DNA of 64,000 nt from an uncultured Candidatus Saccharibacteria bacterium (GCA_964468825.1 CAYXWO010000001.1:3234-67233), one strand, 5' to 3'. Positions 8,309 to 29,834 are shown, counted from the stretch's first letter. The notes: generated by a model not told the origin, from the letters alone. Translations and numbers: made by a program.

Positions 8309-8313
8309 GTAAT

Positions 8314-8919: not shown

Positions 8920-8993
8920 AGAAGTTGATAAGGCAGGTAGGTTTCGGTCTCTATTTGCTATACACTAGTTAGTATCAGTATAAAAAGTATTTT

Positions 8994-9377: not shown

Positions 9378-9395
9378 GGCTTACACCGCCTCGTT

Positions 9396-9749
9396 ATGAA
9401 TTTTATTATTATACGAACAATTGGAGTCCTAGCTGCCAGCTATGTTACTAAAGTCGGTGTACCACTTGCCTTTGGCACGTTTGCAATTTCTTTGAGCACC
9501 GCATGGGTTGCGCTTCTCGTGGCACTCGTACTTGCGGTTATTAACCATACGATTCGTCCGATTTTCATGCTCATCTCAATACCGGTCAACCTTCTCACTC
9601 TCGGACTTTTCTCTTTCGTTATTAACGGCCTCATGATACTTCTCGCAGATAAGATTGTTCCAGAGTTCTCTGTCCCGTCGCTTCTCATGGCTATCTACTT
9701 CTCGATAGTCCTTGCAGTTATTAACTGGGTATTACATTTTTTTGAGTAG
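9396..9749 (+). CDS. DUF360 / phage-holin-4-like membrane protein
   Basis: Three or four TM helices, with a pattern resembling the YvlD/holin_4_2 family. Confidence 0.5.
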   Translation: MNFIIIRTIGVLAASYVTKVGVPLAFGTFAISLSTAWVALLVALVLAVINHTIRPIFMLISIPVNLLTLGLFSFVINGLMILLADKIVPEFSVPSLLMAIYFSIVLAVINWVLHFFE

Positions 9750-9767
9750 GAGGGTATACTGGGCGAG

Positions 9768-9956
9768 CAGGCCGCTCTCGTGGTGTTCTGCGAAAAAACC
9801 AAGGCAACTTGCAACCTCTGCCACACCTTAGGCGAGGTATACATTCGGGTAGCGAGACCTCTCAGAATTTCTGATTGCGTCGACATACCGAAGGTTCTCA
9901 CTTCCAAGACAGACCAAGATCCTTCCCGAGGCCGCTCACGCGGCCTCTTTTTTATG
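9768..9956 (+). ncRNA. candidate GC-rich small RNA (unidentified) ending in an intrinsic terminator
   Basis: ~190 nt at ~58% GC with no ORF, starting after a TATACT hexamer at 9756-9761 and ending with GAGGCCGC-tcac-GCGGCCTC+T6. No match to SRP, tmRNA or RNase P consensus that I can verify by eye. Confidence 0.25.
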
Positions 9957-10015
9957 TAATTAGTAATGCAAAAGGGAGCACGAATGCTCCCTTTCTCACC
10001 ATTGGCCGTGAGACC

Positions 10016-10399
10016 TCAGTATTTGCGCGGACCGATGCGGTAGCACGCGATGTTTGCTACTAGATTCGCCACACCGAACGTCTTCGTCGCTTTGTTGAAG
10101 GCGAGATAGAGGAACGGCTGAAGAACTTCGGGCAGCTCATTGAAGTCCGTGGATGCCCAGTGATGACGGACCTCTTCGGTGACGTCGTCTGAATGGTTGA
10201 CCATGAAGCAATTCGTTTCCTCGAACCTGCAGGACTCAAGCACCGGGACCAGGTTCAGTACGCCGTCGATGACATCTCTGGTCTCTTCGAAAGTCATTTT
10301 GTACCAGAAGTCGTCATAGCCTTGGCCGTACCCGCAGAGGAATAAGACGTTTGGCAAGTACGAAGGGCTCATCGCCCTGGAGTTCATTGCGGTTGTCAT
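10016..10399 (-). CDS. hypothetical protein (127 aa), GC-rich foreign composition
   Basis: Complete ORF at ~55% GC, flanked by hairpin AAAGGGAGCA-cgaa-TGCTCCCTTT and an upstream -35/-10-like TTGACT/TAGTTT. Confidence 0.4.
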   Translation of the reverse strand: MTTAMNSRAMSPSYLPNVLFLCGYGQGYDDFWYKMTFEETRDVIDGVLNLVPVLESCRFEETNCFMVNHSDDVTEEVRHHWASTDFNELPEVLQPFLYLAFNKATKTFGVANLVANIACYRIGPRKY

Positions 10400-10689
10400 A
10401 GAGATCCATTTCTTTTCTGACGTGACGTGTCAGCCTGGCTCTAAACTATTCCAAGCTCAAGTAAAAGTCAAACGTCTAGACCCGCGTTCATAATGGAAAG
10501 AGATGAAGGAATATGTTAGAATTCGCGAATCAATAACTTCTAATTTATATTATTTATGTCACTCTCAATCGGCATGGAGCGAACACAAACCAACATTTCT
10601 TAAGTGTTGGAAATGAAAAACTTATACCGTTCCAGTTCAACATCAAGTTGCCTTTAAAATTAAATAGTTACGAGTAGGGGGGTAGGGCC

Positions 10690-11151
10690 ATGCTCTTTTC
10701 TAAGAAAACTCTTCAAAATATCCCTCACTGTTTCAAAGCGAGACCATTTTTAGAAATTGGTAATGTGCACTTTGATATACTTAGGATATACATGACAACA
10801 ATTAAGCAGAAAGTAGCACTAGAGAAACTAGTGGAAAACGGTGGTAACGTCACAAGAGCAATGATAGATGCTGGCTACTCAGAAGCAACAGCGAACAATC
10901 CCTCAAATTTGACTCATAGCGAGGGTTTTAGGTCTTTACTTAAGCAATATGGATTAGATGAAAGCTTAGTTGTTACGGCCCTTGTAGAGGATATTAAAGG
11001 TAAGCCATTGAATAGATCTAAGGAACTACTTCTTGCCTCAGAGATTTTAGGCATGAGAAAAAACGGAGCTCTCTCAATCAAAGTTCAAGATAATAAACCC
11101 GTAATTGTATATATGCCGCAGGTTCTCATCGAGAAGTTTCATCTTAATTAG
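10690..11151 (+). CDS. small-terminase-like HTH protein (Terminase_2 / SPP1 G1P-like 'AGYS' motif)
   Basis: 'LVENGGNVTRAMIDAGYSEATA' matches the TerS HTH (cf. SPP1 G1P 'LIDLNASRAAREAGYSPKTA'). Paralogous to the ORF at 19311-19826. Confidence 0.5.
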   Translation: MLFSKKTLQNIPHCFKARPFLEIGNVHFDILRIYMTTIKQKVALEKLVENGGNVTRAMIDAGYSEATANNPSNLTHSEGFRSLLKQYGLDESLVVTALVEDIKGKPLNRSKELLLASEILGMRKNGALSIKVQDNKPVIVYMPQVLIEKFHLN

Positions 11152-11300
11152 ACTCTTCTATTTTGATGTCTGTACACAGCATCCATAAGGCACAACAAAG
11201 CGTTTAACTCAGAGTAGGCTTTGTCGTTACTTATCTCAGTGCCATACTCTTGTCTGTAAATTTCCTTGTATCTCTCAATGTCTTTTTGAGCTATTTGCAT
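11148..11300 (-). CDS. small hypothetical ORF (50 aa), convergent with and stop-overlapping the TerS-like gene
   Basis: By-eye ORF MQIAQKDIERYKEIYRQEYGTEISNDKAYSELNALLCLMDAVYRHQNRRV. Below the track cutoff. Confidence 0.2.
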   Translation of the reverse strand: MQIAQKDIERYKEIYRQEYGTEISNDKAYSELNALLCLMDAVYRHQNRRV

Positions 11301-11376
11301 GTTATTTAAAAATTTATTATTTTGGCTATATTTTATGCTACTATATTAGAATCTAAAGACTCGTTTTAAAAGTAAA

Positions 11377-12789
11377 ATGACAAAAGAAGAAATAATTAAG
11401 AAGATAAAATACGGACTTGAAATAGCAAGTGAGCTTTCTGATCTTGAATTTAAAACAGCGACCAGCTCTATTCCAAATGATATCTGGCGAAGTATTTCAG
11501 CTTTTGCAAATCGAAGAGGTGGAGGCCTCATTGTCTTTGGAGTTGATGAGAGACAAAATGCAATCACTGGATGTGCAAATATTGATCAAATGCAAACAAA
11601 ACTCACAGAGATTTTTAATGACAAGATGAGTTTTATTTTGCGTCCTGAGTACCATGTAATCGATATTGATAATAAAACGATTCTTGCGGTAAATATTCCT
11701 GAGTGTCCAAAAGATTATATGCCTTGTTATTTTAAAAACGTAGGATTGCCCAACGGAGCATACATCAGAGAGGGGAATACGAGTAGAAAAATAACAGACA
11801 ACGAGTTTCGTACTTATGTTGCAACATCAAAAGAATTTCAATTTGATCTTTCCGAAGCCAGAGGGGCTAAGAGGGGTGATATTTCTGTAGATAAAGTCGA
11901 TGCGCTTTTACGGCAGAGTGAGTCTCAATTAAATAGGGGAGCTGATCACATTGTTAATGATTCTGTACTTGAAAATCTTGGAATAGTTTCTTTGTTCGAT
12001 GGTGAGTATAAGCCAACAATTGGGGGTTATTTAATTTTCGCAAAGGACATTCCTCAAAATAAAAGCCCTTATGATCGATATGCTGTGAGATGTATTCGTT
12101 ACATTGGTAGTGATCCTTCATCTGAGATAATTGATACTATTGATGTCGCCGGAACGCTTGATACTCAAATTGATGAAGCGTATAAATTTATCTTAAAAAA
12201 TATCTCTAAAAAAGCAGTCATTGTTGGAACTAAAAGAGTCGAGGGCTACGAGTATCCAGAGGCAGCTATTCGAGAACTTGTTGCTAATGCGGTTATACAT
12301 CGTGATTATAAAATTATTGAAACGTACACACAGATTAGAATTTTCCAGGATCGCATAGAAATTACTAATCCGGGATCGCTCCCGCCTGGAGTTAATGTTG
12401 ATAATCTTAAAGAAGCTCAGTTCAGTCGCAATTCAATGATTGCAGCAAGGTTGAAAGATATGAAATATCTTGAAGAGTACGGACGAGGTATTGATATTGT
12501 TGTTAAAAAAATGTCTGAATGGAGTTTGCCTTCACCTCTATTTAGAAATTCTGTAAACAGTTTTGAAGCGATACTCTTAGGTAATACTTATCAAGATATT
12601 AACGATAGACAAATAAAAATTATTGATGTTCTTTTGATTAAAGGTCGTTTGACTGCTGCTGACTGTTTGAAGATTCTAAAGGGAATACCTCGTGCGACAA
12701 TAAATGCAGATCTTAAAAAACTAAAAGACCTCGGTGTTATTGTCACAAAAGGTGCATCTGTGAACACGTATTACATGCTCGCTTTCTAG
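11377..12789 (+). CDS. Schlafen/AlbA_2 (divergent AAA) - HATPase_c_4 - wHTH protein ('RecG-like' transcriptional regulator family)
   Basis: N-terminal AlbA_2-like region, 'ELVANAVIHRDY' HATPase_c_4 motif, C-terminal HTH. Confidence 0.65.
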   Translation: MTKEEIIKKIKYGLEIASELSDLEFKTATSSIPNDIWRSISAFANRRGGGLIVFGVDERQNAITGCANIDQMQTKLTEIFNDKMSFILRPEYHVIDIDNKTILAVNIPECPKDYMPCYFKNVGLPNGAYIREGNTSRKITDNEFRTYVATSKEFQFDLSEARGAKRGDISVDKVDALLRQSESQLNRGADHIVNDSVLENLGIVSLFDGEYKPTIGGYLIFAKDIPQNKSPYDRYAVRCIRYIGSDPSSEIIDTIDVAGTLDTQIDEAYKFILKNISKKAVIVGTKRVEGYEYPEAAIRELVANAVIHRDYKIIETYTQIRIFQDRIEITNPGSLPPGVNVDNLKEAQFSRNSMIAARLKDMKYLEEYGRGIDIVVKKMSEWSLPSPLFRNSVNSFEAILLGNTYQDINDRQIKIIDVLLIKGRLTAADCLKILKGIPRATINADLKKLKDLGVIVTKGASVNTYYMLAF

Positions 12790-12993
12790 AAGCTTTTAGA
12801 AGCAATTTAAAAATGTATTGAAAACAAAGAGTTAATTATGCTTATTCTGGTCCTAATTATTTAGATGCGATTAGAAGCATTTCTTTCGGTCCAAAAATAA
12901 TCTAAAAAGTAAAAGGCACCCATTTAGGGTACCTCTCATGTCTAGTATTTACAGTTTACGCAACAGCGGTGCCTTAAATCAAATGGCAGGGAT

Positions 12994-13383
12994 TTAGATA
13001 ATTTCGATCAATTTAAGGAGTTCTTTCTCTCTTTCAGCTTTCAGTATTTGAGCACGCTTAGAAAGCTCTATGAGGGAGAATGGAGGTTTGACATTCATAT
13101 CCATTGTCTCCTTTGGTTTGCCTATTACTTGATTGAGGAGAAAAGCAGCGACTCTTGGGTCCGGTAATTGACGGTAGACAACCTTCTCTCCATTTTCATC
13201 CTCGGTCTCGTAGTAGGACCCTTTAGCAAGTTCAATCTGACCAGTCAAAATCGGCTCTAGTTCTTCAGCTATACGCGTAACAGCATATTTCCTCGCTTCC
13301 TCAGCTTTGATGCTTGCTAAGCCTCGTTTACGGCCCGCGCCAAGCCTTCTACCTCCTCGTGTCGTTGTTATCTCCATATCCAT
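12994..13383 (-). CDS. hypothetical protein with basic Gly/Arg-rich N-terminus (RGGRRLGAGRKRG)
   Basis: Complete ORF of host-like composition. The AT-hook-like N-terminus suggests DNA binding. Confidence 0.45.
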   Translation of the reverse strand: MDMEITTTRGGRRLGAGRKRGLASIKAEEARKYAVTRIAEELEPILTGQIELAKGSYYETEDENGEKVVYRQLPDPRVAAFLLNQVIGKPKETMDMNVKPPFSLIELSKRAQILKAEREKELLKLIEII

Positions 13384-13510
13384 ATTATATTACAAAATAA
13401 GGCGATTTTATAGCATAAAAGAATTGATTAAATCAAATAATCAAAATCTTTTAATTTAACAACATAAATAAATATTGCTATAATTTACCTTGATACATAA
13501 ATACTAAAAT

Positions 13511-13978
13511 ATGAAATTTGAGACCCCTAAATTTGAGACACCTAACTTTTTGAAAGAATTCACCATAAGTGAGGCACAGCAAGTGTCTGAGATTTTTAAA
13601 ACTAACCCACATGTTCGCTCTGTTAGTTTGATAGGAGCTGTAAAACAAACACAAAAAATGCACTCCCTGCGTTTTGTTATTGAAGTTGATAGTGATGAGT
13701 TGTTTCATAATTTCGCAGAAAGCTTTTCAAAAGAAAAAGGTGATGCAATTATTGCACCGGAGAGACGATTAGAAGCACTTTCACGCGTACTCGGAGACGA
13801 TTTACTATTTAAGATTGATGAGAGTTTTACTCATGATAAACATGCAGGAAATTTCATTGATGCAGTCATCGTTCCGCCAGGTTGGCAGTCAAAAATTGAC
13901 TTTGTTCAAAGCCGATTACCCTTTGACGATATAACGACAGCTGAACTTATTGATGCACTTAAACTGTCAGAATCATAA
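13511..13978 (+). CDS. hypothetical protein (155 aa); weak nucleotidyltransferase-like G[AS]...DxD pattern
   Basis: 'LIGAV...VIEVDSDE' only loosely resembles a minimal NTase motif. Confidence 0.4.
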   Translation: MKFETPKFETPNFLKEFTISEAQQVSEIFKTNPHVRSVSLIGAVKQTQKMHSLRFVIEVDSDELFHNFAESFSKEKGDAIIAPERRLEALSRVLGDDLLFKIDESFTHDKHAGNFIDAVIVPPGWQSKIDFVQSRLPFDDITTAELIDALKLSES

Positions 13979-14038
13979 TTAAGTGGAATTATTACCGAAC
14001 CTAGATTACCAATGCCTATTGACAAAACTATATAATGT

Positions 14039-14068
14039 GTGCTATAATAAAAAGAACAAAGCTCTTTA
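14039..14068 (+). promoter_or_regulatory. consensus sigma70 promoter TTGACA-18-TATAAT
   Basis: Perfect hexamers, then SD GGAGG and ATG at 14086. Confidence 0.4.
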
Positions 14069-14085
14069 ACTAACGGAGGTGTGTC

Positions 14086-14577
14086 ATGGAGGGAACTCCT
14101 TTGCTTATTTCGTATCTTAGCTTTTTCTTCCAAGCCTGGAAGAAAGCTTACAACCTCGGCTGGATATTTCACCGGATGGTGGAAGCTCACGGCATAGAGG
14201 TTGCGCTAGCCTTTTTTAAGGAGGCTGAAGCAGCAGGCTACCCACTGGTAGCGAAGGCTACTCGCGCGCACGCTGGTACTCCGTTCTTCTTGACGGTGGT
14301 CAACAAGAGGTTCTCTGATTGGGTGTTTGCAAAGACCCCAACAGAAGAAACTTTTGTGAAGAACGTTCTTGCGAACGCGCAAAGGCTTCAAGCCACAGAA
14401 GAGATGTGGGGTGCGGCCAGCAAGGAATGCGCAGAAGATCTGCGTCAACGTGGGTGGGAAGCACTTGATACCTTAGGTGGAAAGACCAAGGGGCTCAAGA
14501 TGAATCAGCTTCGCTACGATACTCGTGGGCGTAGGACCGGCAAGGGCGCACCAGAAAGAACCTGGGCAAAAAAATAA
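14086..14577 (+). CDS. hypothetical protein (163 aa), GC-rich cassette inside the island
   Basis: ~52% GC versus ~38% for neighbours, with its own promoter, SD and terminator. Confidence 0.45.
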   Translation: MEGTPLLISYLSFFFQAWKKAYNLGWIFHRMVEAHGIEVALAFFKEAEAAGYPLVAKATRAHAGTPFFLTVVNKRFSDWVFAKTPTEETFVKNVLANAQRLQATEEMWGAASKECAEDLRQRGWEALDTLGGKTKGLKMNQLRYDTRGRRTGKGAPERTWAKK

Positions 14578-14610
14578 GAAGATTGCAGTTTGCGCACTGC
14601 ATTCAGAGAA

Positions 14611-14638
14611 GTCGACCTGTCCCGGTCGGCTTTTTTTT
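14611..14638 (+). terminator. intrinsic terminator GTCGACC-tgtcc-CGGTCGGC+T8
   Basis: Hairpin followed by a T-run. Confidence 0.55.
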
Positions 14639-14677
14639 GTTACACTTTCAACATACTTAAGTTAAAATTATCTATCT

Positions 14678-17600
14678 ATGAACGACGAAGCACCTCGCCA
14701 CCCTTGGGGGTTTAGCGCTAACACAGAAAAGCCTCCAGTAGAATTAAGCGCTCTAGCTAAGGAGTGTGGTGTTTCTGAAAAGGAAATACGTGAAGTATTA
14801 ATAAAATTAGGATGTGCAAAGCCGGAGCGTAAAGATGTACTACGCCCGCGATCTGGTAAGCCTGCAATACGAAAATCGACCCTTACTTGCTTATCTGTAG
14901 ACGCAGAACAGGTGAGAAGATATTATAAAATCGAAAATGAATCCCCATCAGTAAATGAAAATGAAAAAGAGGTAACTCAAGATAACAAACCGCCTAAAAA
15001 CTGGCCTTCGCTCGGAAGATTAAGAATAAAATTGGGGCTTGAAAGAAGTGAAATTAGGTCTTGTCTTCATGAGGTGACACTATCTGGTTTGCGCTCTGGA
15101 TTAGCAAATACTCCATTTGGAGCTTTGGTGCAGAAAAGTACTTCAGAAATGACAGTTGAATATAATGGTGTCACTTATATTTCGCCAGAAGTTGCTGAAA
15201 GACTTACAGAGTTGTCTACAACAATTTTCAGAAAACGTGATGGAGGAAAGTATCTAGATGCTTCACAAGCAATTCAGGAGCTAGGACTCGCTGATGGTAA
15301 GCCAGAAGATGCGAATGAAAAATTAAAACAGGAAATAGACAATTTTCTACAAAAATATCCTTGGTTATCTAAGGAGATAGTTGAAAAAGCAGATATTGCT
15401 GGTGGTCCTGCTACAATATACTATTCAAGAGATTTGCTTTCTTTTATTCGTAAGATAAATGAAAGCGATAATAGCTTTGTGACTGCAACTGAAGATGTTC
15501 CGGAAGGGTATATATCTGAGCGAGACATAATAAACTCGTTAGAGCTATTTCCTTCTAAGTTAGAAGTACTTAAAAAGAAAGTTTTGACAGAAGTCACTCT
15601 AGAGAAACCTATTGTTGGACTTTTCAAGCCGGGGAGTAAAGCAAAAAAAATTGAATATTTTTATTCACCAGAGCTTTTTAAAAAAATTAGTGAACTAAAG
15701 ATTTTTGACGAATCTCTACGCGAAGAAACTCTCGACGAAAGTCAGGGAGAACTGATCGTATTTGATGTTGAAACAGAAACACCAGAAGGATATATTTCAA
15801 AAAGAGAGTGTATTTCTATACTGGACATAACCCCCGAAAAATTCGAGAGATTAGTCATGGAGGTGTCCCAGCATCATCCTGAATTTTCTCGCCCAACAGT
15901 AGCTATACCCAGAACAAATCGCTCATTGCGACCACGAATTTTTTATTCGCAAGAATTAATCAAAGCTATTTCTGAATTTAAGACAGCAAATGAAAAAGAC
16001 TCTCCAGTAGAAATAAAACAAGAGGCTATTCCAGAGGGTTATATATCTCTACTTGATTGCACTATTAGTTTAGGTATAAGCGCAAATAAAGTTCAACAGT
16101 TGGTAGATGAATGTCTTTATCTTCGACCAACACTAAAGCAAGAAGGGGTAATAAACAGAAGAAGAGGACAGTCTCGTGGCCTCAGTGTGTTTTACTCGCC
16201 TGAACTCGTGTCAGCAATAACTGAACTAAAACAAAAAAATGATAAACTTCAACGAGAAAAAATTGAAGATGCCCAGAGAATCCTAGAAGAAACAATAAAA
16301 TTAAAAGAAAGGCTAGCTTCTGTGCTCGATGATATAAGTCGAGGTTTGCCTGAAACCGCTCCCTTTAGGAGGGCTGTATCACTTTTCGGCGGAGCAAGAA
16401 CAATAGATCTTCTTAAAAAATTCTACCCCGAATTTGTAGAAATTCCAGCTCAATATATGCAAAAGGAGGTCGCTTCGTACTTAAGTGACTATATGGTTTC
16501 TCGTTCAGAAAATGTTATTGAAGACCTGGACGCAGCAGTACCCTTCCTTCATGAGAAAGTTTTTAGTGAGACCCTGTTTACTATCTTGAAAAATAACTGT
16601 GCGATCTACTATAGCAAAAAAAAGAGAGAGTCACGAGAGCGGACAGACCAGGAAATTCTAGATGAGTACTACTTAATATTGGAGCAAAAAGCTGAGTTAC
16701 TCAAGAGTAATGAACTTAGAGTGGTAGTTAAAGGCATTGAGGAATATATACAGTCATTACTTAATGATTTTCAAAAACCTGAAGCAATTGTCGATGAACT
16801 TAATGCTGGAAGAGAATTCCCTGACCTAAATCAAATTATTAATATCAAAGAGGTTGCAGATAATAGACATGTATTGATTGGAGATGAGATGGGAATGGGG
16901 AAAAGTGGGTCGGCTATTTTATCGAAAGAATACCTCGGAGTAAGTACCGCGATCGTCATTGCCCCAAGCAATGCAATTGATATGTGGAAAGAGTACTTAT
17001 CTGCTAACGTATCTCCATCTGGAAAGCAAGTCGGGTACTTTAAACCAGGGAAGGCACCTCGGGTTCTTGAAATTCAGAGTGTTGACGACTTAAGTAAAGC
17101 ACGAAGTCAGGAATACGATTATGTCCTTATATCTCACGATCGAATTAGTGAAGAACTAGCAACTAAATTAAGAGAGGTATCTTACGAGATGGTAATTGTT
17201 GATGAAGCGCATAAATTCAAAAATATTACTGGAGGCAAAAGATCTAACGCCTTGCTGGGCATGTTAGAGGATTGTGAAGATAGAGATACATACACAGTAC
17301 TCCTTTCGGGTACGCCAATTCCAAATAAAATTCGAGATATGGCTATAATTTTAAAATTATTATACCCAGACAGATTTGGGCATATGGATAACAACTTATT
17401 GGTTTCAAGTATTATTAGAGGAGATCTCACTGATTTGCGTGAGTTACTTCTATTAAGGACTCAGATGAAAAAACTATCTGAAAGTATTCAAATGCCGAAA
17501 AAAGAGGAACGGTTGGACTTTGTAACTTTATCTGAAGGAGAAAGGGAGCTTTATCAGGTAGTAATGGAAGATGATCAAATGAATTCCATGGAAAGGCTTT

Positions 17601-19261
17601 CTGCTTTACGTTTGTTTTGTTTAAACCCGAGGAAAGTCTTTCCAGATAGTAAGATGGTAGGTTCAAAAATTACTGAGGCAGAAAGTAGTATTGCTACTTT
17701 TTTTGAAACAAAAGATAAACTAGTTTTTTTTGTTAATGGGTATGTTTACGGAGTCATACGTGGCGAAAATTCAGTGTTATCTCAAATGAAAATGCCTGAA
17801 GGGGTTACGGTAAGAATTATTGATGGAGACACCTCACGAGAGGAGCGCCGTGAAATTGAACAAGAATTAAAATATACAAGTAATGGAAAGATTTTACTCG
17901 TGGTAAATGGTGGGGCCGCTGATGTTGCTGTCGATTTCTCTGCGGCAGAAGGGGTGCAATTTTACAATGAGCCTTGGACAAAATTTGATAAAATGCAACA
18001 GACATCGAGAGTTTATCGGCCAGGATTAAAACATGATATTGAAGTCGGAACATCGGTAACAAGGGGTTCTGTTGAGGAGGGGATGCATTATTATATTGAA
18101 ATGAAATACCGTGCCGTTGTAAAACTTCTTGAAGGGATACCTCTGTCAGAAATGGAAAAATCACTCCTTCTCCTAGATGAAAAGGCGTCAGATGTTGTTT
18201 CAGTTGATAAGGATTTTGGATTTGCTGAGGAGTGGCTCCAGACTCCGATGGGTAGACTTAACAGGTTTTCTAAAATGACGAAAGAAATCGGTGAAAAGGA
18301 ATTTGTTTCAAGATTTCTTCCAGAACATGGGGAGGCATACGCTTCTTTCTACGAAGAGTTGGAGACTCATAGTTTCGAAGCAAATACCGCTCGCTTTGTG
18401 GCTACTCTAATTGAAGAGTATCGAAAAGAAAAAGATCTTCCTGTTGATATAACTGTCTTGGATTTGGCATCTGGTCCAGAAATGTTACGAAAACGCATGC
18501 GAACTGAAACAAATGAAAATGTGTATAGCCTCGACATAAACCCAGAACACTTTAAAGGAAGAGGTGGTAAACAGGTGGTTGGAGGTCTTACTAAACTTCC
18601 ATTCCGTGATTCTTCAATAGACTATGTAAATTTATCTCACTCACTTCATTATTCGTCTTTTCGACCAGAAAAAGGAGATTATGAAAGACTGACTGTCTTA
18701 GCAGAGATTTCAAGAGTTCTTAAAGTTGGTGGCAGAGTCACGATTAATTTGGCGCATACTCAGAGCTTTAGAAGTCTGGAAAGGTTGGGTGAGATAGCAG
18801 ACGAAATGGGGCTAACAATCATCAATGCTAAAACTGGACTAGTTGTATCTGATAATAATTATATGTCACCATGTGTAACATTTGAAAAAGTAGAAGAGAT
18901 AGACCTGTCTTCGACATTGACTGAACTAAAATCTAGAAGAAGGTACACACTCTACGGATTACGTCTAGACACTCATCGGGCAACAAAAAAATTACATAGC
19001 ACTCAAAAAATCGCAAAGGATTTTTCTATCCATGGACAGACTATGGAAACGATTCTTAACAAGGAAGATATGGTTTTGCTAAGTGAACAAGAAGAAATAC
19101 AAAATGAGGGAGACAGACTTATAAAACAATATGGCGGAAGCGTAGCTTTGATTCCCAAAGAGGAAATTCAAGAACGAGGATTCTTACGCTACACTTCAGG
19201 TAATAAGAGCCGACTTGTAAAGAAAGGTAGTCATAGTAAGACCTTTATATATGTGAACTAA
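14678..19261 (+). CDS. giant multidomain protein: N-terminal tandem ~90-aa repeats + SNF2-family helicase + class I SAM-dependent methyltransferase
   Basis: SNF2 motifs GDEMGMGKS / IVDEAHKFKN / LLSGTPIPNK / QQTSRVYRPG. MTase motifs VLDLASGPE / LPFRDSSIDYV / LKVGGRVTI. Three clear 'PEGYIS...FYSPEL..I.ELK' repeats at aa ~275-520. Confidence 0.8.
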   Translation: MNDEAPRHPWGFSANTEKPPVELSALAKECGVSEKEIREVLIKLGCAKPERKDVLRPRSGKPAIRKSTLTCLSVDAEQVRRYYKIENESPSVNENEKEVTQDNKPPKNWPSLGRLRIKLGLERSEIRSCLHEVTLSGLRSGLANTPFGALVQKSTSEMTVEYNGVTYISPEVAERLTELSTTIFRKRDGGKYLDASQAIQELGLADGKPEDANEKLKQEIDNFLQKYPWLSKEIVEKADIAGGPATIYYSRDLLSFIRKINESDNSFVTATEDVPEGYISERDIINSLELFPSKLEVLKKKVLTEVTLEKPIVGLFKPGSKAKKIEYFYSPELFKKISELKIFDESLREETLDESQGELIVFDVETETPEGYISKRECISILDITPEKFERLVMEVSQHHPEFSRPTVAIPRTNRSLRPRIFYSQELIKAISEFKTANEKDSPVEIKQEAIPEGYISLLDCTISLGISANKVQQLVDECLYLRPTLKQEGVINRRRGQSRGLSVFYSPELVSAITELKQKNDKLQREKIEDAQRILEETIKLKERLASVLDDISRGLPETAPFRRAVSLFGGARTIDLLKKFYPEFVEIPAQYMQKEVASYLSDYMVSRSENVIEDLDAAVPFLHEKVFSETLFTILKNNCAIYYSKKKRESRERTDQEILDEYYLILEQKAELLKSNELRVVVKGIEEYIQSLLNDFQKPEAIVDELNAGREFPDLNQIINIKEVADNRHVLIGDEMGMGKSGSAILSKEYLGVSTAIVIAPSNAIDMWKEYLSANVSPSGKQVGYFKPGKAPRVLEIQSVDDLSKARSQEYDYVLISHDRISEELATKLREVSYEMVIVDEAHKFKNITGGKRSNALLGMLEDCEDRDTYTVLLSGTPIPNKIRDMAIILKLLYPDRFGHMDNNLLVSSIIRGDLTDLRELLLLRTQMKKLSESIQMPKKEERLDFVTLSEGERELYQVVMEDDQMNSMERLSALRLFCLNPRKVFPDSKMVGSKITEAESSIATFFETKDKLVFFVNGYVYGVIRGENSVLSQMKMPEGVTVRIIDGDTSREERREIEQELKYTSNGKILLVVNGGAADVAVDFSAAEGVQFYNEPWTKFDKMQQTSRVYRPGLKHDIEVGTSVTRGSVEEGMHYYIEMKYRAVVKLLEGIPLSEMEKSLLLLDEKASDVVSVDKDFGFAEEWLQTPMGRLNRFSKMTKEIGEKEFVSRFLPEHGEAYASFYEELETHSFEANTARFVATLIEEYRKEKDLPVDITVLDLASGPEMLRKRMRTETNENVYSLDINPEHFKGRGGKQVVGGLTKLPFRDSSIDYVNLSHSLHYSSFRPEKGDYERLTVLAEISRVLKVGGRVTINLAHTQSFRSLERLGEIADEMGLTIINAKTGLVVSDNNYMSPCVTFEKVEEIDLSSTLTELKSRRRYTLYGLRLDTHRATKKLHSTQKIAKDFSIHGQTMETILNKEDMVLLSEQEEIQNEGDRLIKQYGGSVALIPKEEIQERGFLRYTSGNKSRLVKKGSHSKTFIYVN
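15493..16245 (+). repeat. three (possibly four) diverged tandem ~250-285-nt intragenic repeats encoding 'PEGYIS' modules
   Basis: Repeat units start near 15500, 15783 and 16032 (ccgGAAGGgTATATatct / ccaGAAGGaTATATttca / ccaGAGGGtTATATatct). Confidence 0.5.
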
Positions 19262-19310
19262 AAAGAGGCCTTATAGATTGAATACCAAGAGAAGTATTTA
19301 CATCTACGAA

Positions 19311-19826
19311 CTATTTCTCAACTATAATTCTCATACCTGTTATAGGCTCTACGAAACGATTCGTCTGTTCAATTTTTGCAGTTGAGTAATTACCTTTTAG
19401 CTTATGGGCCATATCAAGAGCAGCTTTAATCGCTTGAGTGTCTGGCACAGCATAGAAGGCGAGTTTTGCATTCCCAGAGGGGCGAATCGAAATGACGTAA
19501 AGACCACAGGATTCGAGATGTTCTCGTATCTCAGTATCTTCAAGATTTTTATCAAAAGAGATATAGGTAATATGCTTTTGGTTAAATAGTCTCTTGTGTT
19601 GGTCCATGATGTACTCATTCGGAAGAAACTCTTCTAAAAGAGTGGTCCAGTTCTCAGAGCTTGTGAGCTTACTTGGTGTTTTAATCGTTGCTTCTGAGTA
19701 ACCTGCTGTACGCATAGCCATAGTCACAGACCCACCATTTTCCACTAAAGCTTTCATTGCCTTCCTCTGTTTCGTTGTAGCCTTTGCCTTAATGATTTTA
19801 ATTGACTTTGTATCACTATTTACCAT
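19311..19826 (-). CDS. small-terminase-like HTH protein (paralog of 10690-11151), inverted orientation
   Basis: 'ALVENGGSVTMAMRTAGYSEATIKTPSKLTSSE' is ~50% identical to the ORF A N-terminus over ~50 aa. Nucleotide identity is also visible (ttagtggaaaatggtgg vs ctagtggaaaacggtgg). Confidence 0.5.
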   Translation of the reverse strand: MVNSDTKSIKIIKAKATTKQRKAMKALVENGGSVTMAMRTAGYSEATIKTPSKLTSSENWTTLLEEFLPNEYIMDQHKRLFNQKHITYISFDKNLEDTEIREHLESCGLYVISIRPSGNAKLAFYAVPDTQAIKAALDMAHKLKGNYSTAKIEQTNRFVEPITGMRIIVEK

Positions 19827-19900
19827 ACTTTAATGGTATCAAATTATTATATGAATCGCACTTTTTGAAAAGGTCTTACCAGAGTGGTACAATTCTAGAT

Positions 19901-20893
19901 ATGGAAAAGGACCCTCTTCTCACGGCAAAACTTATCTACTTTTGTGAAAAAATTTTGGAGTCAAAGCGTGATGGGGACCAATTTACTTCTGTTAGCTATG
20001 CTCCGCTTCTTGGCATGACCAGAGATGAGGTTTCTGACTTGATTCATCTTCTTAAAACTAAAAAACTTGCAAAGTGGGAATATGTCATCAAAACAGTTCA
20101 AGACGATGAGGGGCGGGACGTTGAGGTTGATTTTGATTCGTTGAGTTTTAACAAACGAGGGATTAAGGAGTATGTGAAAAAATTAAAGAAAGGTCTTAAG
20201 GAAAGTCCCACTATTAAACGAGAAGAGTTGTTGCGAATCAGAGAGCAGGTCAACTCTATATTTAACAAGAAAGCATGTATGCGAGTGCTTGCTAAGTTTT
20301 ATTCTACGGATGATCTTTATATCTATTTTCACTATGATAAGTATGTTCTTGTAGACCTACTTCTGAGCCATGCATACTCGAATAAAGTGTCACTTGCAGA
20401 AGTGCTTGCTGAGTTCCTCAATCCCGTCTACTACAACCTTGGTGAAGAAGGAAAATCAGAGCAGTTATTTCACTTCATCGATAAAGTCTTTTCTTTATGT
20501 GCAACTGAAAAAGATTATAATGAGTGGCAAGAAAAAGCATCAAAGTATATTACCACTATACAAAAGAAAATGAGCTCAAAAAAGAATAGTCATAATGAGA
20601 TTGAAATCGTTGGTGGAAATGTTAATTTTAAAGATATCACAATGCCGATTGAGAGAGGCCATAAAAAGATGTTTATTGAGCTCAACAAAACTCCTCAGAT
20701 TAATAGAAATGGAAAACTATTTAAGCAAGGTGAAAAGGTCCATAGAAGTGTGTTGCAAAGCGTCGCATATCGAGATGAAGACTCATTCAGAGCAGCGCTA
20801 GCCAAACTTAGAACAAAACTTAGGGAATCTGGTCTCCCTGTTGAGATTGTGAATGATACTACTAATCACTATATGCTAACGATCAATTATTAA
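19901..20893 (+). CDS. putative transcriptional regulator with C-terminal OmpR/PhoB-type winged helix
   Basis: C-terminus 'ALAKLRTKLRESGLPVEIVNDTTNHYML' fits the trans_reg_C pattern (LRxKL...P..I.TVRGxGY). Start moved to the ATG at 19901 to avoid overlap with the divergent gene. Confidence 0.45.
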   Translation: MEKDPLLTAKLIYFCEKILESKRDGDQFTSVSYAPLLGMTRDEVSDLIHLLKTKKLAKWEYVIKTVQDDEGRDVEVDFDSLSFNKRGIKEYVKKLKKGLKESPTIKREELLRIREQVNSIFNKKACMRVLAKFYSTDDLYIYFHYDKYVLVDLLLSHAYSNKVSLAEVLAEFLNPVYYNLGEEGKSEQLFHFIDKVFSLCATEKDYNEWQEKASKYITTIQKKMSSKKNSHNEIEIVGGNVNFKDITMPIERGHKKMFIELNKTPQINRNGKLFKQGEKVHRSVLQSVAYRDEDSFRAALAKLRTKLRESGLPVEIVNDTTNHYMLTINY

Positions 20894-20998
20894 AGCGAGT
20901 AATTTGAGTAGTACCTAGTAGTACTATCAATGGTACTTATGACATTCTTTCCAGCTATATAGCTCAAAGCTATCCACAGAAAAGTATGTATATATACG

Positions 20999-21025
20999 AA
21001 AAAGCCTAATATCTAAGGCTTTTTC
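20999..21025. terminator. bidirectional hairpin AAAAAGCCT-aatatct-AAGGCTTTTT
   Basis: Perfect stem flanked by A and T runs. Confidence 0.55.
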
Positions 21026-21044
21026 TTTATGCGAAAGTCGTCCC

Positions 21045-21239
21045 ATGGACGATAAGAAAGCGCAAAAAGAAATCAAGGTGAGTTATCAGGAGGTATCTGA
21101 TGACCCGGAAGTAATCAATCAAAAAATTGAGGAGGCTTTTGATGCGCTATTTGAAATCGTCTATAAAAATTATTGGTTAGACATTCAAAACTATGGCACA
21201 ACAAAACAAAGACGAGATCTTGGCGAAGAAGCTGAGTGA
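21045..21239 (+). CDS. small hypothetical protein (64 aa), paralog of the next ORF
   Basis: Shares an 'h..YxK/N-YWL' motif with the ORF at 21193-21384. The two overlap by 47 nt in different frames. Confidence 0.3.
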   Translation: MDDKKAQKEIKVSYQEVSDDPEVINQKIEEAFDALFEIVYKNYWLDIQNYGTTKQRRDLGEEAE

Positions 21240-21384
21240 CGTATTGGCAAAGCATTACGAAAAGTATTGGTTAGCTGAAAAGAGAGGTAAGGTAAATTAT
21301 CAAGAGATAAACGATACGCTTGTGGTACATATCAAGCAAGTACTTACGTTTTACGAGAATAGTAAACGAGCCTATGGAAAATAA
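21193..21384 (+). CDS. small hypothetical protein (63 aa), translationally coupled to Prim-Pol gene
   Basis: Its stop overlaps the Prim-Pol ATG (tATGgaaaaTAA). Confidence 0.3.
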   Translation: MAQQNKDEILAKKLSDVLAKHYEKYWLAEKRGKVNYQEINDTLVVHIKQVLTFYENSKRAYGK

Positions 21385-23431
21385 ATTCAAAACGGCAGCA
21401 CTTAACTATCACAAGAAAGGGTTCTCGGTTATCCCGCTAAAGCCACAAAGTAAGATTCCAATGCTTACGCACTGGCAACAGTATTCAACTACAAAATCGA
21501 CAGTTGAGGAAATTGAAAAGTGGTGGACCGAGACACCGAATGCAAATATCGGGGTTGTATGTGGTCCAGCTGGTGGAAGATTTTTGTTCGTTGTCGATCA
21601 AGATGTGCTCAAAGACGAAAACAAGATTCCTATGCTGGATGAAAATGGAGACTTCAAGGAGCGTGGTGATATACGAGGTTGCCCTCCGACAGTTCTTCAA
21701 ACAAGTGGTAGTGGCGGCAAGCAGATGTTCTATTTTGCACCAAAGGGATATGAGGTTGGTAATCGTATTGGTGTACGCCGTCTTGTGGATGTGAAGGGAC
21801 TTAATGGTCAGGTGGTTGTACCACCATCAATTCATCCCAATGGGAAGGAGTACTCGTGGGATTGGGAAGACCTTGATCCAGCTAGCATAACCGAGTTTCC
21901 TAAAGAGGATCTAGACGCATTCTTGGGAGTGAGTAGTGACGGCAAAGATTCAGTTGATAAAGTTCTCGCTGGCGTTCCTGTAGGAGAAGGGAAAAGGCAT
22001 ATTGGCATCGCACAGGTCGCTGGATACTACTTGAGAAAAGCAAAGTCTCCCGCAGAAATAGATATGGCAAGAATAGCTGTCTATGCATGGGATAAGATAG
22101 TGAATAAGTCTCCTGAGCCAGAAATGGAGAGACGGAAGGAGATCGATAACGTGTTTGACGGTATTCTCAAACTAGAGCAAACAAAGAGAGGTAAGCAAAC
22201 TTCCTCATCAGGTAAAGCTGAAAAGAAATTCGTTGAGCCTAAGTTGTGGCAAATCAGTGATATCTTAACGACTGATTTCGGAGAGGAGGAGTGGGCAGTA
22301 GAAAATCTCATATCTAAGCAAGGTATCACAGCTCTTTCAGGAAATCCTGGCGACTTCAAAACATGGCTAACGATTCATACAGCGCTCTGTGTCGTCCGTA
22401 ACGTGCCGGTGTTCGGTAAGTTTAAAGTGACACAAGGCAATGTGCTCATTATAGATGAAGAGGACCATATCAGGTTACTTAAAAAGAGACTGGAGCTTCT
22501 TGGTGCCAAAGAGAGTGACGAAATTCATTATCTCTCTCAAGGTGGCATAAAAGTTGATAACGAAGATGTGCTTGAATTCATTCTTAGGATTATCGAGGAC
22601 AAGGATATTAAGCTCGTGATACTCGACTCACTTGTGAGAATTCATGATCAAGAAGAGAACGATGCGAGCGGTATGTCGACTGTGTTTAGCAACTTACAGA
22701 AATTTATCACCGCTGGGGCATCAATACTCTTTACTCATCATCATAGAAAGCAAACTGGGTTCGGTAGTAGCAATGCAGGGCAGAGCATGAGAGGTTCTTC
22801 GGATATATTGGCCGCTGTGGACTGTCACATTATGATTGAAAGAAAGCGTGAAGAGGAACACAGACTCATCATAAAGCAGACAAAGTTAAGACAAGCTGAG
22901 CTATTACCAGCGTTTGAACTCAGTGTCACTCAGGGTGAGCATGGTCCATCGGGTTTCGAGTATATCGGTGATTATGATGAGCGTAGAAATAAGGCTGAAG
23001 AGGTAGCTGAAGCAATCATACTATTGCTCTCAGACGGCATGAAGAATCGCTCAGAGTTGCAAGAAATACTTATTGATGAATACGGTAAGACGGTAATTGA
23101 TGATGGCATAAAAATCGCACAAGAGATGGAAAAGATTGAACGTGTACCGAAAGAAGAGATACCAAAGGCTGACAGGAAGAAGGCCTACTATAGAGTACCA
23201 GGAGTCACGAGTGCCCACATTCAAAATGATCTTCCTGTTTCCTTAACATATATAGATGACGGGAAGCAGGAAGATGAATACGCGTACTTAGTTGAAAGTG
23301 AAGGAGAGCTAAGTGTATGTTGTAAAGCTCCGATGTATGGAGGCGCCCAGTGTAGCGCATGTGGCGCAGATGGTAAGTTCTATACCGACGAGGAGATGGA
23401 GCAAAAGGTTCTTAACTTCCAGAATAGCTAG
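21374..23431 (+). CDS. replication protein: bifunctional primase-polymerase (Prim-Pol) N-domain + RepA/AAA_25-like ATPase + C-terminal Cys cluster
   Basis: 'GFSVIPL..K.P...W', 'ANIGVVCG', 'VVPPSIHPNGKEYSW', then a RecA-fold region (VLIIDEEDH, LVILDSL) and CC..C..C at the C-terminus. Confidence 0.7.
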   Translation: MENKFKTAALNYHKKGFSVIPLKPQSKIPMLTHWQQYSTTKSTVEEIEKWWTETPNANIGVVCGPAGGRFLFVVDQDVLKDENKIPMLDENGDFKERGDIRGCPPTVLQTSGSGGKQMFYFAPKGYEVGNRIGVRRLVDVKGLNGQVVVPPSIHPNGKEYSWDWEDLDPASITEFPKEDLDAFLGVSSDGKDSVDKVLAGVPVGEGKRHIGIAQVAGYYLRKAKSPAEIDMARIAVYAWDKIVNKSPEPEMERRKEIDNVFDGILKLEQTKRGKQTSSSGKAEKKFVEPKLWQISDILTTDFGEEEWAVENLISKQGITALSGNPGDFKTWLTIHTALCVVRNVPVFGKFKVTQGNVLIIDEEDHIRLLKKRLELLGAKESDEIHYLSQGGIKVDNEDVLEFILRIIEDKDIKLVILDSLVRIHDQEENDASGMSTVFSNLQKFITAGASILFTHHHRKQTGFGSSNAGQSMRGSSDILAAVDCHIMIERKREEEHRLIIKQTKLRQAELLPAFELSVTQGEHGPSGFEYIGDYDERRNKAEEVAEAIILLLSDGMKNRSELQEILIDEYGKTVIDDGIKIAQEMEKIERVPKEEIPKADRKKAYYRVPGVTSAHIQNDLPVSLTYIDDGKQEDEYAYLVESEGELSVCCKAPMYGGAQCSACGADGKFYTDEEMEQKVLNFQNS

Positions 23432-23453
23432 TTTATAAGGTGGATAATGCTTT

Positions 23454-23482
23454 TGACATTTAAGAACAATTATGAGTATAAT
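23454..23482 (+). promoter_or_regulatory. consensus promoter TTGACA-17-TATAAT, 6 nt before ATG (leaderless xis)
   Basis: Hexamers at 23454-59 and 23477-82. ATG at 23489. Confidence 0.5.
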
Positions 23483-23488
23483 TAATAT

Positions 23489-23701
23489 ATGGAATTTTAC
23501 ACAAGAAACGAGGTTGCGAAATACTTTAGAGTGCATGAGAGAACAATTGACCGCTGGATAGAGAGCGGTAGTTTGAAGGGGTATAAGTTTGGTGATGGTA
23601 AAACAGCTACGCTTCGTATACCAAAAGGAGAGGTCGAAAGGTTTTTAGAAGATCACAGAAGTGATAAAAAACAAGATGGAAAAAATAAATCAACAAAATA
23701 A
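23489..23701 (+). CDS. excisionase/Xis-family HTH DNA-binding protein (candidate RDF)
   Basis: 70 aa. 'NEVAKYFRVHERTIDRWIESG' is an HTH_17-like helix. Confidence 0.55.
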   Translation: MEFYTRNEVAKYFRVHERTIDRWIESGSLKGYKFGDGKTATLRIPKGEVERFLEDHRSDKKQDGKNKSTK

Positions 23702-25316
23702 ACTCATAGCAATATATGGGCGTGTCTCAACTTCCAATCAGGAAAATGAAGGGACCATTGAAACACAGCTCTCTGCAGTGAATGATCATGCAGAAAAGAA
23801 TGGCTATGTCATCGTGCAAAAATATATTGATGAAGGATGGAGCGGCGATAATATCGTAAGACCTGCGCTTGATCAGCTTCGCATGGATGCAAAGAAAAAG
23901 AATTGGGAAGCAGTTCTTATATATGATCCGGACAGACTTGCTAGACGTGCTGCGTGGCAAGAGGTTGTAACAGAGGAATTGCATGAGCTAGGTATCGACG
24001 TTCTTTATGTTACTGTACCACAAGCTAAGACTGATGAAGATAAAATCATGTCAAAAATGAGAGGTGTTTTTTCTGAATATGAAAGAATGAAGATCAAGGA
24101 AAGGTTTCGTCTAGGGAAGGTACGTAAGGCGCGAGAAGGTCATATCATTGCAACAGAGGCACCGTATGGATATACATTCATTACAAGGACGACTGAAAGG
24201 CAGGGGTACTATGAAATTAATGAAAAAGAATCTCTCGTCGTACAGAGTATCTTTTCTTGGGTGGGTAATGATGGCCTTACGCTTCGTGGCGTTGTGAGAA
24301 AACTTCAAGAGCTAGGTATTGCTCCGCGTAAAAGTAAGCGTGGTGTATGGAGTACGAGCACACTTAGTAATCTGCTCCGTAACAAAACATACATCGGCGA
24401 AGCTCACTATGGTGCCTCATATGCTGTGGTTCCAGAAAATCCACTTAAAGATGAGAAGTACAAGAAGATCAAGAAAACGAGCAGAAAAAGCAAACCTGAA
24501 AGCGAGTGGATAAAAATGGCATCACCGAAGATCATCGATGAAGAGCTATTTATAAAAGTCCAAGAACGACTCAAATCAAACTTTCAAGCATCAATGCGAA
24601 ATACTAAAAATGAATATCTACTGTCTCATAGAATTTGGTGTCCGTGTGGTTCACGAAGAGCAGGTGAAGGACCTCAACACGGCAAACATCTCTACTATAG
24701 ATGTACAAGTCGTGTAAAAAGCTTTCCAGTTCCTTCTAGCTGTGAAGAAAAGGGTTTAAATGCTAGAATAGTCGATACTGTGGTCTGGCAAAGAATGGTA
24801 GAACTGATGAGTTCACCTAAGCTTATGCTTAAAGAAGCTGAGCGCTGGACTAAAAGTAAAAACAAAACGATAACTGACTTTTCGGTTATCAATATAGAAG
24901 AAGCTAAGAAAGAAATTTCTAAACTCAAAGAGCAAGAAGACCGTTTTGCTAAGGCGTATGGCGCAGGACTCATTACACTTGATAAGTTAGGTGAGTACAC
25001 AGAATCTCTCAAGGAGAAAATTGCGTTACTAGATACTCAGATCACAAAGGCTTTAGACGAGCGGTCCAAAAGAAATGAAGCTCCGCTTCCTGAGATAAGT
25101 GACGTTAAGCAATTCTCTGAGGCAACATCGCACGTGCTCTCTAAGTTAAAGTTTGAGGAAAAGCAGGTAGTCGTTCGAAACACTATTACTAAAATTGTGG
25201 GCACAAGGTCGGAATTATCAATTTATGGTTTTATACCAGTAACATCAAACATCAATGTCTTCTCTCTCCATCGGCATCGTAGGTCTTCCAAACGTGGGCA
25301 AGTCTACACTATTTAA
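23676..25316 (+). CDS. large serine recombinase (integrase)
   Basis: Resolvase catalytic 'IAIYGRVSTSNQ', recombinase domain, Zn-ribbon 'CPCG...YYRCTS', coiled-coil. The last ~20 codons overlap the ychF start. Confidence 0.85.
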   Translation: MEKINQQNKLIAIYGRVSTSNQENEGTIETQLSAVNDHAEKNGYVIVQKYIDEGWSGDNIVRPALDQLRMDAKKKNWEAVLIYDPDRLARRAAWQEVVTEELHELGIDVLYVTVPQAKTDEDKIMSKMRGVFSEYERMKIKERFRLGKVRKAREGHIIATEAPYGYTFITRTTERQGYYEINEKESLVVQSIFSWVGNDGLTLRGVVRKLQELGIAPRKSKRGVWSTSTLSNLLRNKTYIGEAHYGASYAVVPENPLKDEKYKKIKKTSRKSKPESEWIKMASPKIIDEELFIKVQERLKSNFQASMRNTKNEYLLSHRIWCPCGSRRAGEGPQHGKHLYYRCTSRVKSFPVPSSCEEKGLNARIVDTVVWQRMVELMSSPKLMLKEAERWTKSKNKTITDFSVINIEEAKKEISKLKEQEDRFAKAYGAGLITLDKLGEYTESLKEKIALLDTQITKALDERSKRNEAPLPEISDVKQFSEATSHVLSKLKFEEKQVVVRNTITKIVGTRSELSIYGFIPVTSNINVFSLHRHRRSSKRGQVYTI

Positions 25317-29732: not shown

Positions 29733-29834
29733 AAACCCGTCGCCGACTGGCACGAGAGAACGCCACTGACAATGGCGTTTTCATTTTGTAAAAATTATCT
29801 AGAATCTCAGACTTCTTTTTGTTATAATCAGAAA

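Follow-up and report, generated by a model that had tools for sequence, protein, structure and literature searches.

An RRP8-like methyltransferase joined to a SNF2 motor and variable N-terminal repeat arrays: a protein family with one member on an integrative element of a Candidatus Saccharibacteria contig

What does a single prokaryotic polypeptide do that carries tandem repeats, a SNF2 motor and a methyltransferase? The question is raised by a gene in a 64,000-nucleotide stretch of DNA from an uncultured Candidatus Saccharibacteria bacterium (GCA_964468825.1, CAYXWO010000001.1:3234-67233; this whole stretch is referred to as the window). A preliminary description of the window had pointed to one uninterrupted 4.6-kb open reading frame (ORF) encoding repeats, a SNF2 helicase and a class-I S-adenosylmethionine (SAM) methyltransferase. 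Indeed, the ORF starts with ATG and encodes 1527 amino acids (aa) without interruption (14678-19261, + strand), and Pfam searches of its translation gave the same succession of motor and methyltransferase. We establish here the domain order of the protein and its fold affinities, a family with variable N-termini, the genomic island with its junctions and the linkage of a partner gene in relatives. As an answer to the question we tentatively favour a base methyltransferase that tracks along DNA and marks or damages it in genome conflict, a reading that we consider possible rather than probable.

The methyltransferase was matched by Pfam Methyltransf_11 at aa 1261 to 1355 with 39.2 bits (cut-off 21.2), and its SAM-binding motifs are intact (LDLASGPE at 1261 and SLDIN at 1284), in agreement with the class-I assignment made before. 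Three residues of the module (D98, G102 and D122) do not vary among 31 family sequences, and the family-wide invariance of the SAM-binding motifs and of the residue set around the methyltransferase argues for catalysis. The AlphaFold model of aa 1165 to 1527 had a pLDDT of 89.9 and a pTM of 0.88. The best solved relative of a profile of this segment, made from the 31 family sequences, was the methyltransferase domain of human nucleomethylin/RRP8 (2zfu; E 1.9e-6). Foldseek also ranked 2zfu first for the methyltransferase segment and METTL6 second, and a Trm112-partnered putative methyltransferase and Bud23 followed at lower ranks amid many generic class-I methyltransferases and SAMTOR. METTL6 produces 3-methylcytosine (m3C) in tRNA, Bud23 produces 7-methylguanine (m7G) in 18S rRNA and SAMTOR is a SAM sensor. 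RRP8 is described as the enzyme that forms 1-methyladenine (m1A) in large-subunit rRNA (PMC3553958). Since its nearest solved relative is RRP8, and METTL6 and Bud23 rank high among its fold matches, the methyltransferase is, as judged from profile and modelled fold, of the ring-nitrogen, RNA-base type and not a DNA amino-methyltransferase.

The top solved relative by both profile and fold is nevertheless a distant one: identity to RRP8/nucleomethylin is 16 to 17%, and RRP8 has neither a helicase nor a helix-turn-helix (HTH) array fused to it, whereas the family described here flanks the methyltransferase with an N-terminal helical extension of its own and a C-terminal domain of 120 aa. For this C-terminal domain (the last 120 residues) no match to known families was found. 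The window protein had no match to PF05148 (Methyltransf_8) either, and relatives scored 17.9 to 25.5 bits, below the cut-off of 27, so that membership of this sequence family was not found. The preliminary description had noted the absence of a DPPY/NPPF motif and had likened the enzyme to methyltransferases of the small-molecule or RNA type for that reason. Both statements held up: the motif [DNS]PP[YFWH] occurs nowhere in the 1527-aa protein, in whatever permutation, and among 99 long family representatives only one has it in the C-terminal 420 aa. A canonical N6A/N4C DNA methyltransferase with a permuted motif was rejected on these grounds and because Pfam N6_Mtase and N6_N4_Mtase did not match the window protein.

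The motor N-terminal to the methyltransferase was matched by Pfam SNF2-rel_dom at aa 720 to 974 (77 bits; cut-off 24.9) and by Helicase_C at aa 1012 to 1116 (30.6 bits; cut-off 23.5). Motifs I, II, III and VI of the helicase are all preserved (GDEMGMGKS at 735, DEAH at 842, SGTP at 877 and QQTSRVYRPG at 1107). The SNF2 core is therefore complete, as had been claimed, and belongs to the SWI2/SNF2 ATPases. A phmmer search of PDB sequences with the core returned ISWI, SMARCA5, CHD1L, Ino80 and SsoRad54 at E values of 1e-13 to 1e-16, and in sequence the core is nearest to bona fide double-stranded DNA (dsDNA) translocases. It is preceded by a helical domain of 180 aa, termed the pre-helicase domain here, which matched neither Pfam models nor PDB sequences.

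The N-terminal part had been described as an array of three tandem repeats of ~90 aa, each beginning with PEGYIS. With a hidden Markov model (HMM) built from the repeats of relatives, three copies were indeed detected, at E values of 1e-7, 1.6e-17 and 2.7e-7, starting 94 and 83 aa apart. The unit had to be revised to a folded unit of ~65 aa plus a linker. The nucleotide repeats of 250 to 285 nucleotides (nt) that had been considered recognisable were not recovered: TRF reported none of that period, and a repeat search left a single 27-nt PEGYIS-coding match with a spacing of 531 nt. Of the degenerate copies suspected further N-terminal, the best, at aa 214 to 263, is marginal (6.1 bits, a score near the 99th percentile of shuffled sequences) and the others are not significant; the repeat HMM of relatives gave weak matches at aa 24 to 59 and 213 to 258.

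The model of the repeat unit has the fold beta-alpha-alpha-wing-alpha, and its top structural matches are DNA-binding relatives, the best being the N-termini of ParA2 and P1 ParA, pSK1 Par and RacA, that is, DNA binders of partition and anchoring systems. The repeats model as winged HTH domains of the MerR/excisionase type, and of the two earlier suggestions, DNA-binding or protein-binding modules, the first is upheld through this modelled fold. Their fold is like that of MerR/excisionase (HTH_17) domains, including those of ParA N-termini, pSK1 Par and RacA, but a match to the sequence family was not found: aa 1 to 700 gave no Pfam match at E<=1, hence no MerR or HTH_17 membership, and the lone match in a relative was a weak HTH_11. 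In contrast to these domains, the unit described here occurs in tandem arrays of up to 12 copies and has a signature of its own, PEGW...HPEWF...YSPEL.

The protein is not a singleton. When representatives at 50% identity were searched exhaustively with a profile of the methyltransferase-plus-C-terminal module, 348 proteins were obtained at E<=1e-3, 138 of them at E<=1e-30; a word-indexed protein search, with three members, had understated the family. The module stands almost always at the extreme C-terminus of proteins of 1100 to 2600 aa. Nearly all of the 99 long representatives have the SNF2 core (98) and the pre-helicase domain (97), and the stretch N-terminal to the pre-helicase domain varies in length from 14 to 1653 aa. 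One to 12 copies of the PEGYIS-type repeat (consensus PEGW..(13)..I..(7)..HPEWF..(12)..YSPEL) were found in 42/99. Four repeat-negative members that were read (P0008, P0014, P0030 and P0046) have unrelated N-terminal repeat arrays, and Pfam matched nothing in the N-termini of the five repeat-negative members that were scanned. The array types seen in P0014, P0030, P0046 and P0008 comprise ~95-aa units of the form 'GiYtD.eG..W...YF...LY', ~100-aa Trp-rich units and 'SSEQY..W..LPEW..W..FLG' units. P0002 and the window protein are 62% identical, with 48 to 50% in the N-terminal part and 77.5% in the SNF2 core; the N-terminal part evolves faster than the motor, as specificity modules of conflict systems typically do.

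Where a source of family members is named, it is a metagenome-assembled genome (MAG) of Paceibacterota or Patescibacteria or, once, of a DPANN archaeon (a Micrarchaeota MAG), whose homologue is distant and has no repeats. Among 185,579 species genomes (one per species), four family loci were recovered by a pattern-limited scan. No homologue of the methyltransferase-plus-C-terminal module was present in 50,697 phage and 72,556 plasmid records, and in pattern scans of IMG/VR the module had no match and the whole protein gave generic SNF2 relatives only. NCBIfam, PADLOC and PHROGs have no model specific to the family, one source labels a member 'UbiE methylase / superfamily II helicase', and no paper found in a literature search describes the architecture. 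The novelty suspected at the outset is thus upheld as far as these papers and libraries go: this is a sizeable family for which no earlier description was found, and the theme of a helicase joined to a methyltransferase is itself already known.

In eight loci other than the window, an immediate neighbour of the SNF2-methyltransferase gene encodes a conserved protein of 100 to 135 aa. In five of them it was found next to a family gene (L002:7073-7366(-), L005:5111-5416(-), L006:7453-7908, L084:9559-9903 and L087:14629-15024(-)), and look-ups that started from the partner led to an adjacent family gene in 3/3 cases (L090:8001-8384, L091:8001-8342 and L092:6047-6454). The partner has 42 detectable homologues, all unannotated; the few with an organism name are from Patescibacteria. 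Pfam PF02245 (Pur_DNA_glyco, methylpurine-DNA glycosylase or MPG) matched the partner at E 9.9e-4 and 0.063 with different, co-linear pieces of the model, both below threshold, and hhalign aligned it with human AAG (a query sequence identical to PDB 1f4r) over 107 co-linear columns with P 0.013. The catalytic E.Y (Glu-x-Tyr) motif of these glycosylases is present in many members of the partner family, not in all. Moreover, the archaeal ORF L007:5907-6467, located 3 kb upstream of the repeat-less Micrarchaeota homologue, resembles MPG: it matched PF02245 at E 7.9e-4 (below threshold), human AAG in BLASTP at E 1e-3 and the partner profile at E 0.0099.

Is the gene cargo of a mobile element, as had been proposed? 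The related contig L093, whose alanyl-tRNA synthetase (AlaRS) is 95% identical, has genes for RNase HII, a HIT protein and a holin-like protein and two small ORFs followed directly by ychF, and the island is absent from it. In BLASTN, L093 1-2514 corresponds to window 8045-10575 and L093 2498-3686 to window 25261-26456. The insertion replaced the first codons of ychF, so that the protein start changed from MSLSIGIVG to MSSLSIGIVG, and the old ATG persists. The element thus has a recombinase at one of its ends and a short shared att core, and a relative has the unoccupied site; together these demonstrate that the window gene is cargo of a serine-recombinase/PrimPol integrative element (Table 1). 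The element further encodes a 153-aa protein that faintly matches a terminase small subunit, several orphan ORFs and an HTH_17 protein that was called on the identical contig L001. Library scans of the element ORFs found no virion, conjugation or type IV secretion system genes.

Table 1. Positions of the protein domains and of the integrative element in the window
Feature	Position	Strand	Basis or remark
Whole ORF, 1527 aa + stop codon	14678..19261	+	ATG start; identical public protein P0001
N-terminal region, aa 1-270	14678..15487	+	possible degenerate repeat copies, marginal detection
Repeat 1, aa 275-339 (PEGYISE...FYSPEL)	15500..15694	+	repeat HMM E 1e-7
Repeat 2, aa 369-433, the modelled copy, predicted winged helix-turn-helix	15782..15976	+	repeat HMM E 1.6e-17
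Repeat 3, aa 452-516	16031..16225	+	repeat HMM E 2.7e-7
Conserved pre-helicase domain, aa 535-715	16280..16822	+	97/99 long family representatives; no Pfam match
SWI2/SNF2 ATPase core, aa 716-1160	16823..18157	+	Pfam, PDB phmmer, motifs
Helical extension + class-I SAM methyltransferase, nucleomethylin/RRP8-like, aa 1180-1405	18215..18892	+	
Family-specific C-terminal domain, aa 1406-1527	18893..19258	+	family conservation; confident model beside methyltransferase
Integrated element, 14.7 kb	10576..25269	.	empty site in L093; G+C ~38-41% vs 42-45% in flanks
attL core ATCGGCAT	10568..10575	.	displaced original ychF start ATG 10556 just 5'
attR core ATCGGCAT	25270..25277	.	element-supplied new ychF ATG at 25255
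Large serine recombinase	23661..25316	+	Pfam Resolvase, Recombinase, Zn_ribbon_recom; phrog_95 integrase 1.9e-92
PrimPol-AAA_25 replication protein	21320..23431	+	
Schlafen AlbA_2 / HATPase_c_4 protein	11377..12789	+	unlinked to family elsewhere

The surroundings of relatives differ from those of the window gene. Linkage to Schlafen-like and TerS-like genes, which the preliminary description had raised, was not found in general: a Schlafen/AlbA_2 gene was near the homologue in 0/11 other loci and a terminase-small-subunit (Terminase_2) gene in 1/11 (L087, 9 kb off). A family gene lies between aspS and a type III restriction-modification (R-M) system in L084, where the R-M system is beside P0010; amid the genes for HU and RNase Y, truB and infB in L088; immediately 3' of the S13-S11-S4-rpoA-L17-L13-S9 operon and in the same orientation in L090; and after the gene for EPSP synthase in L091. 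A recombinase fragment adjoins P0003. Several members thus stand among chromosomal housekeeping genes of the candidate phyla radiation (CPR) with no evident mobile element, which argues that the protein is not intrinsically an island effector.

How could such a protein work? In the mechanism that we favour, the N-terminal array of MerR/excisionase-type winged HTH units, three clear ones in the window protein and possibly more, would tether the protein to dsDNA through several weak contacts. The SNF2 core would then use ATP to translocate along the duplex or to distort it and would thereby present bases to the C-terminal nucleomethylin/RRP8-like methyltransferase, which would be packed with the family-specific C-terminal domain and would modify a ring nitrogen of the nucleobase (chemistry of the m1A, m3C or m7G type) and not an exocyclic amine. 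The mark would serve genome conflict by labelling DNA or damaging it. At many chromosomal loci the small methylpurine-glycosylase-like partner might read or excise the mark; in the window, the enzyme would act alone, without a partner, as cargo of the element in ychF. DNA as the substrate, the methylated atom and the role in conflict, including the defence or counter-defence function proposed at the outset, are what we infer. One chain that unites a multivalent array of DNA-binding units with a dsDNA translocase and an intact methyltransferase argues for an enzyme that acts on DNA, the relatives of the methyltransferase argue for ring-nitrogen methylation, and a glycosylase-like partner fits an N-methylated base in DNA as the product. 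Furthermore, N-terminal arrays that evolve faster than the core and vary in type and copy number, four loci in the pattern-limited scan of species genomes, a window copy on a mobile element and an R-M system beside another locus would all be expected of a conflict system.

Several observations weigh against a DNA-marking enzyme in genome conflict. To our knowledge, the characterised close relatives of the methyltransferase all act on RNA and not on DNA. The protein has no fused nuclease or other effector, and the defence models of PADLOC and NCBIfam recognised its generic SNF2 core alone, far under their cut-offs. Nothing convincing in the way of iterons or binding-site arrays was found in the island, which leaves the HTH units without a cognate DNA repeat array there. 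The window has no copy of the partner. The similarity of the partner to methylpurine-DNA glycosylases lies below threshold; since, in addition, profile searches of PDB sequences with the partner gave no match, the likeness is suggestive and not established. Finally, the housekeeping surroundings of several relatives, free of island signs, also fit a cellular role outside conflict.

Some of the same observations would be expected if the substrate were RNA. The RRP8-like domain could methylate rRNA or tRNA (forming, for example, m1A), while the SNF2 core acts on RNA polymerase as RapA does or remodels nucleoprotein and the HTH array targets transcribed loci, such as the genes for rRNA. The nearest relative of the methyltransferase is the RNA base methylase RRP8/nucleomethylin, METTL6, Bud23 and the Trm112-partnered putative methylase score well, and relatives have weak matches to Methyltransf_8 and to mRNA-cap methyltransferases; one relative is directly downstream of a ribosomal-protein/rpoA operon on the same strand, several loci have housekeeping neighbourhoods, and a faint match to RapA (E 0.006) was obtained. 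However, only four loci in the pattern-limited scan and a copy on a mobile element are not what such an enzyme would lead one to expect, a housekeeping RNA enzyme would rarely have N-terminal arrays so different in repeat type and copy number, the SNF2 core is like dsDNA translocases and the methylpurine-DNA-glycosylase-like partner points to DNA. We consider an RNA- or ribonucleoprotein-directed enzyme unlikely, though worth keeping in mind. If, instead, the methyltransferase modified a protein such as HU or only sensed SAM, the HTH array could bind many sites in the manner of a centromere-binding or anchoring protein and the SNF2 core could remodel nucleoid proteins, making the whole a factor for nucleoid organisation or element maintenance. 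The partition and anchoring proteins ParA2, P1 ParA, pSK1 Par and RacA as best structural matches of the repeat would suit this, as would the association of nucleomethylin with chromatin, the SAM sensor SAMTOR among the fold matches and an HU gene adjoining one relative; but the invariant SAM-binding motifs and residues around the methyltransferase speak for catalysis, and the island showed neither a ParA/ParB-type partner nor repeats resembling iterons or a centromere. We give this explanation little credence.

A polyvalent anti-restriction protein like DarB of phage P1 would protect the element's own incoming or replicating DNA by translocation-coupled methylation. Like DarB, the window protein is a single large chain with a SNF2 ATPase and a methyltransferase and is linked to mobile DNA, the two have in common the idea of translocation-coupled methylation, the best PHROG match was phrog_62, a large 'DNA helicase' family, and a relative matched LPD11 faintly (E 0.034). 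The methylase-helicase dyad also has published precedent, in which an N6-adenine DNA methylase is N-terminal to SNF2 and LPD36 is present (Iyer et al. 2017, PMC5512222). Here, in contrast, the methyltransferase is C-terminal, of another class (RRP8-like) and without a DPPY-type motif, and LPD36 did not match, so that the protein is not a member of the DarB-like dyads. The DarB explanation is disfavoured because the domains are in reverse order, the methyltransferase is of a different class and the family is absent from the phage, plasmid and viral collections searched; moreover, the element has no virion or conjugation genes, and several relatives lie in chromosomal housekeeping neighbourhoods. 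We therefore regard it as improbable. The probability that remains after these four readings goes to something else that was not considered.

The preliminary description had also invoked DISARM. DISARM DrmD, Zorya ZorD and Dpd DpdE share the SNF2 core with the window protein (PADLOC, E 1e-19 to 1e-10), but the matches are limited to the helicase (DrmD 50.9 bits against a cut-off of 950), and the partner genes of these systems (e.g., DrmA/B/C/M and ZorA/B/C) are absent from the island. The likeness to DISARM and to DarB hence does not extend beyond a generic SNF2 core. DISARM, Zorya, Dpd and Hma were rejected as assignments, since PADLOC and NCBIfam matched the SNF2 core only.

Helicase-methyltransferase fusions are known in phage-host and plasmid-host conflict, and all characterised ones that we know of use DNA amino-methyltransferases. 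The family described here is distinct in that a motor of the chromatin-remodeller type is joined to a methyltransferase most closely related to enzymes that act on ring nitrogens of RNA bases, in its N-terminal arrays of predicted DNA-binding units that differ in repeat type and copy number, and in its frequent glycosylase-like partner. Four domain families described here go undetected by Pfam: the repeat and the pre-helicase and C-terminal domains of the large protein, and the small partner. CPR bacteria and DPANN archaea have tiny genomes, and their defence and epigenetic repertoire is poorly known. If the substrate is DNA, the family would mark or damage it by a chemistry that is new; if the substrate is RNA, the enzyme would be a relative of RRP8 in prokaryotes that is coupled to a motor. 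The DNA reading can be taken further, to a new conflict system in which a SNF2 motor aimed by interchangeable winged HTH arrays drives an RRP8-like enzyme that sets lesion-type N-methylpurine or N-methylpyrimidine marks and a miniaturised partner resembling methylpurine glycosylase reads or excises them, but we think this extended form unlikely. The marks would be m1A, 3-methyladenine (m3A), m7G or m3C on DNA, used for restriction or for self-marking by programmed base damage, and a mobile element of a CPR bacterium would have captured the version in the window, which has no partner. Lesion-type DNA methylation that is read by a glycosylase-like partner would, if true, be categorically new.

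Further features were seen around the family genes. The 155-aa orphan ORF at 13511-13978 of the window has a 48%-identical homologue (L003:4802-5245) directly downstream of P0002, the closest relative; the linkage to the SNF2-methyltransferase gene is kept, the order is changed, and the ORF has no family match. The L003 downstream gene was also tried as a homologue of window ORF 19802-20893 and rejected, as the two are not homologous. Genes for LexA-like S24 peptidases lie 1 to 3 kb downstream of the family gene in three loci (L006:16180-16812, L084:15004-15579 and L092:14405-end); L006 and L092 have a similar layout, an LTD-domain gene followed by lexA, and may therefore not be independent. 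Directly downstream of the Micrarchaeota homologue, L007:12565-13395 encodes 276 aa with four tandem repeats of ~47 aa, as if the array were a separate gene.

In the window itself, a second orphan ORF (14086-14577) is followed after 100 nt by the SNF2-methyltransferase gene, possibly in a single operon. At 14019-14048, 5' of this ORF, a sequence matches a sigma-70-type promoter perfectly (TTGACA and TATAAT 18 nt apart, and a TG upstream); the total number of promoter-like sites in this region is not above chance. Outside the element, a G+C-rich, structured-looking stretch of ~230 nt (9760-9990) follows the holin-like gene; its end is a hairpin like that of a terminator. The stretch is part of the block with 89% identity to L093 and had no match in Rfam, for which tRNA-Tyr was the sole match in the whole window. 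The AlaRS ORF (29772-31775), whose closest named homologues mark the host as a CPR bacterium of the Paceibacteria type, is short, with 667 aa listed and 646 aa deposited; it fits the short-form model PRK01584 (595 positions) and not the ~850-aa bacterial alaS model, and it is 78 to 79% identical to proteins named Candidatus Pacebacteria or Paceibacterota.

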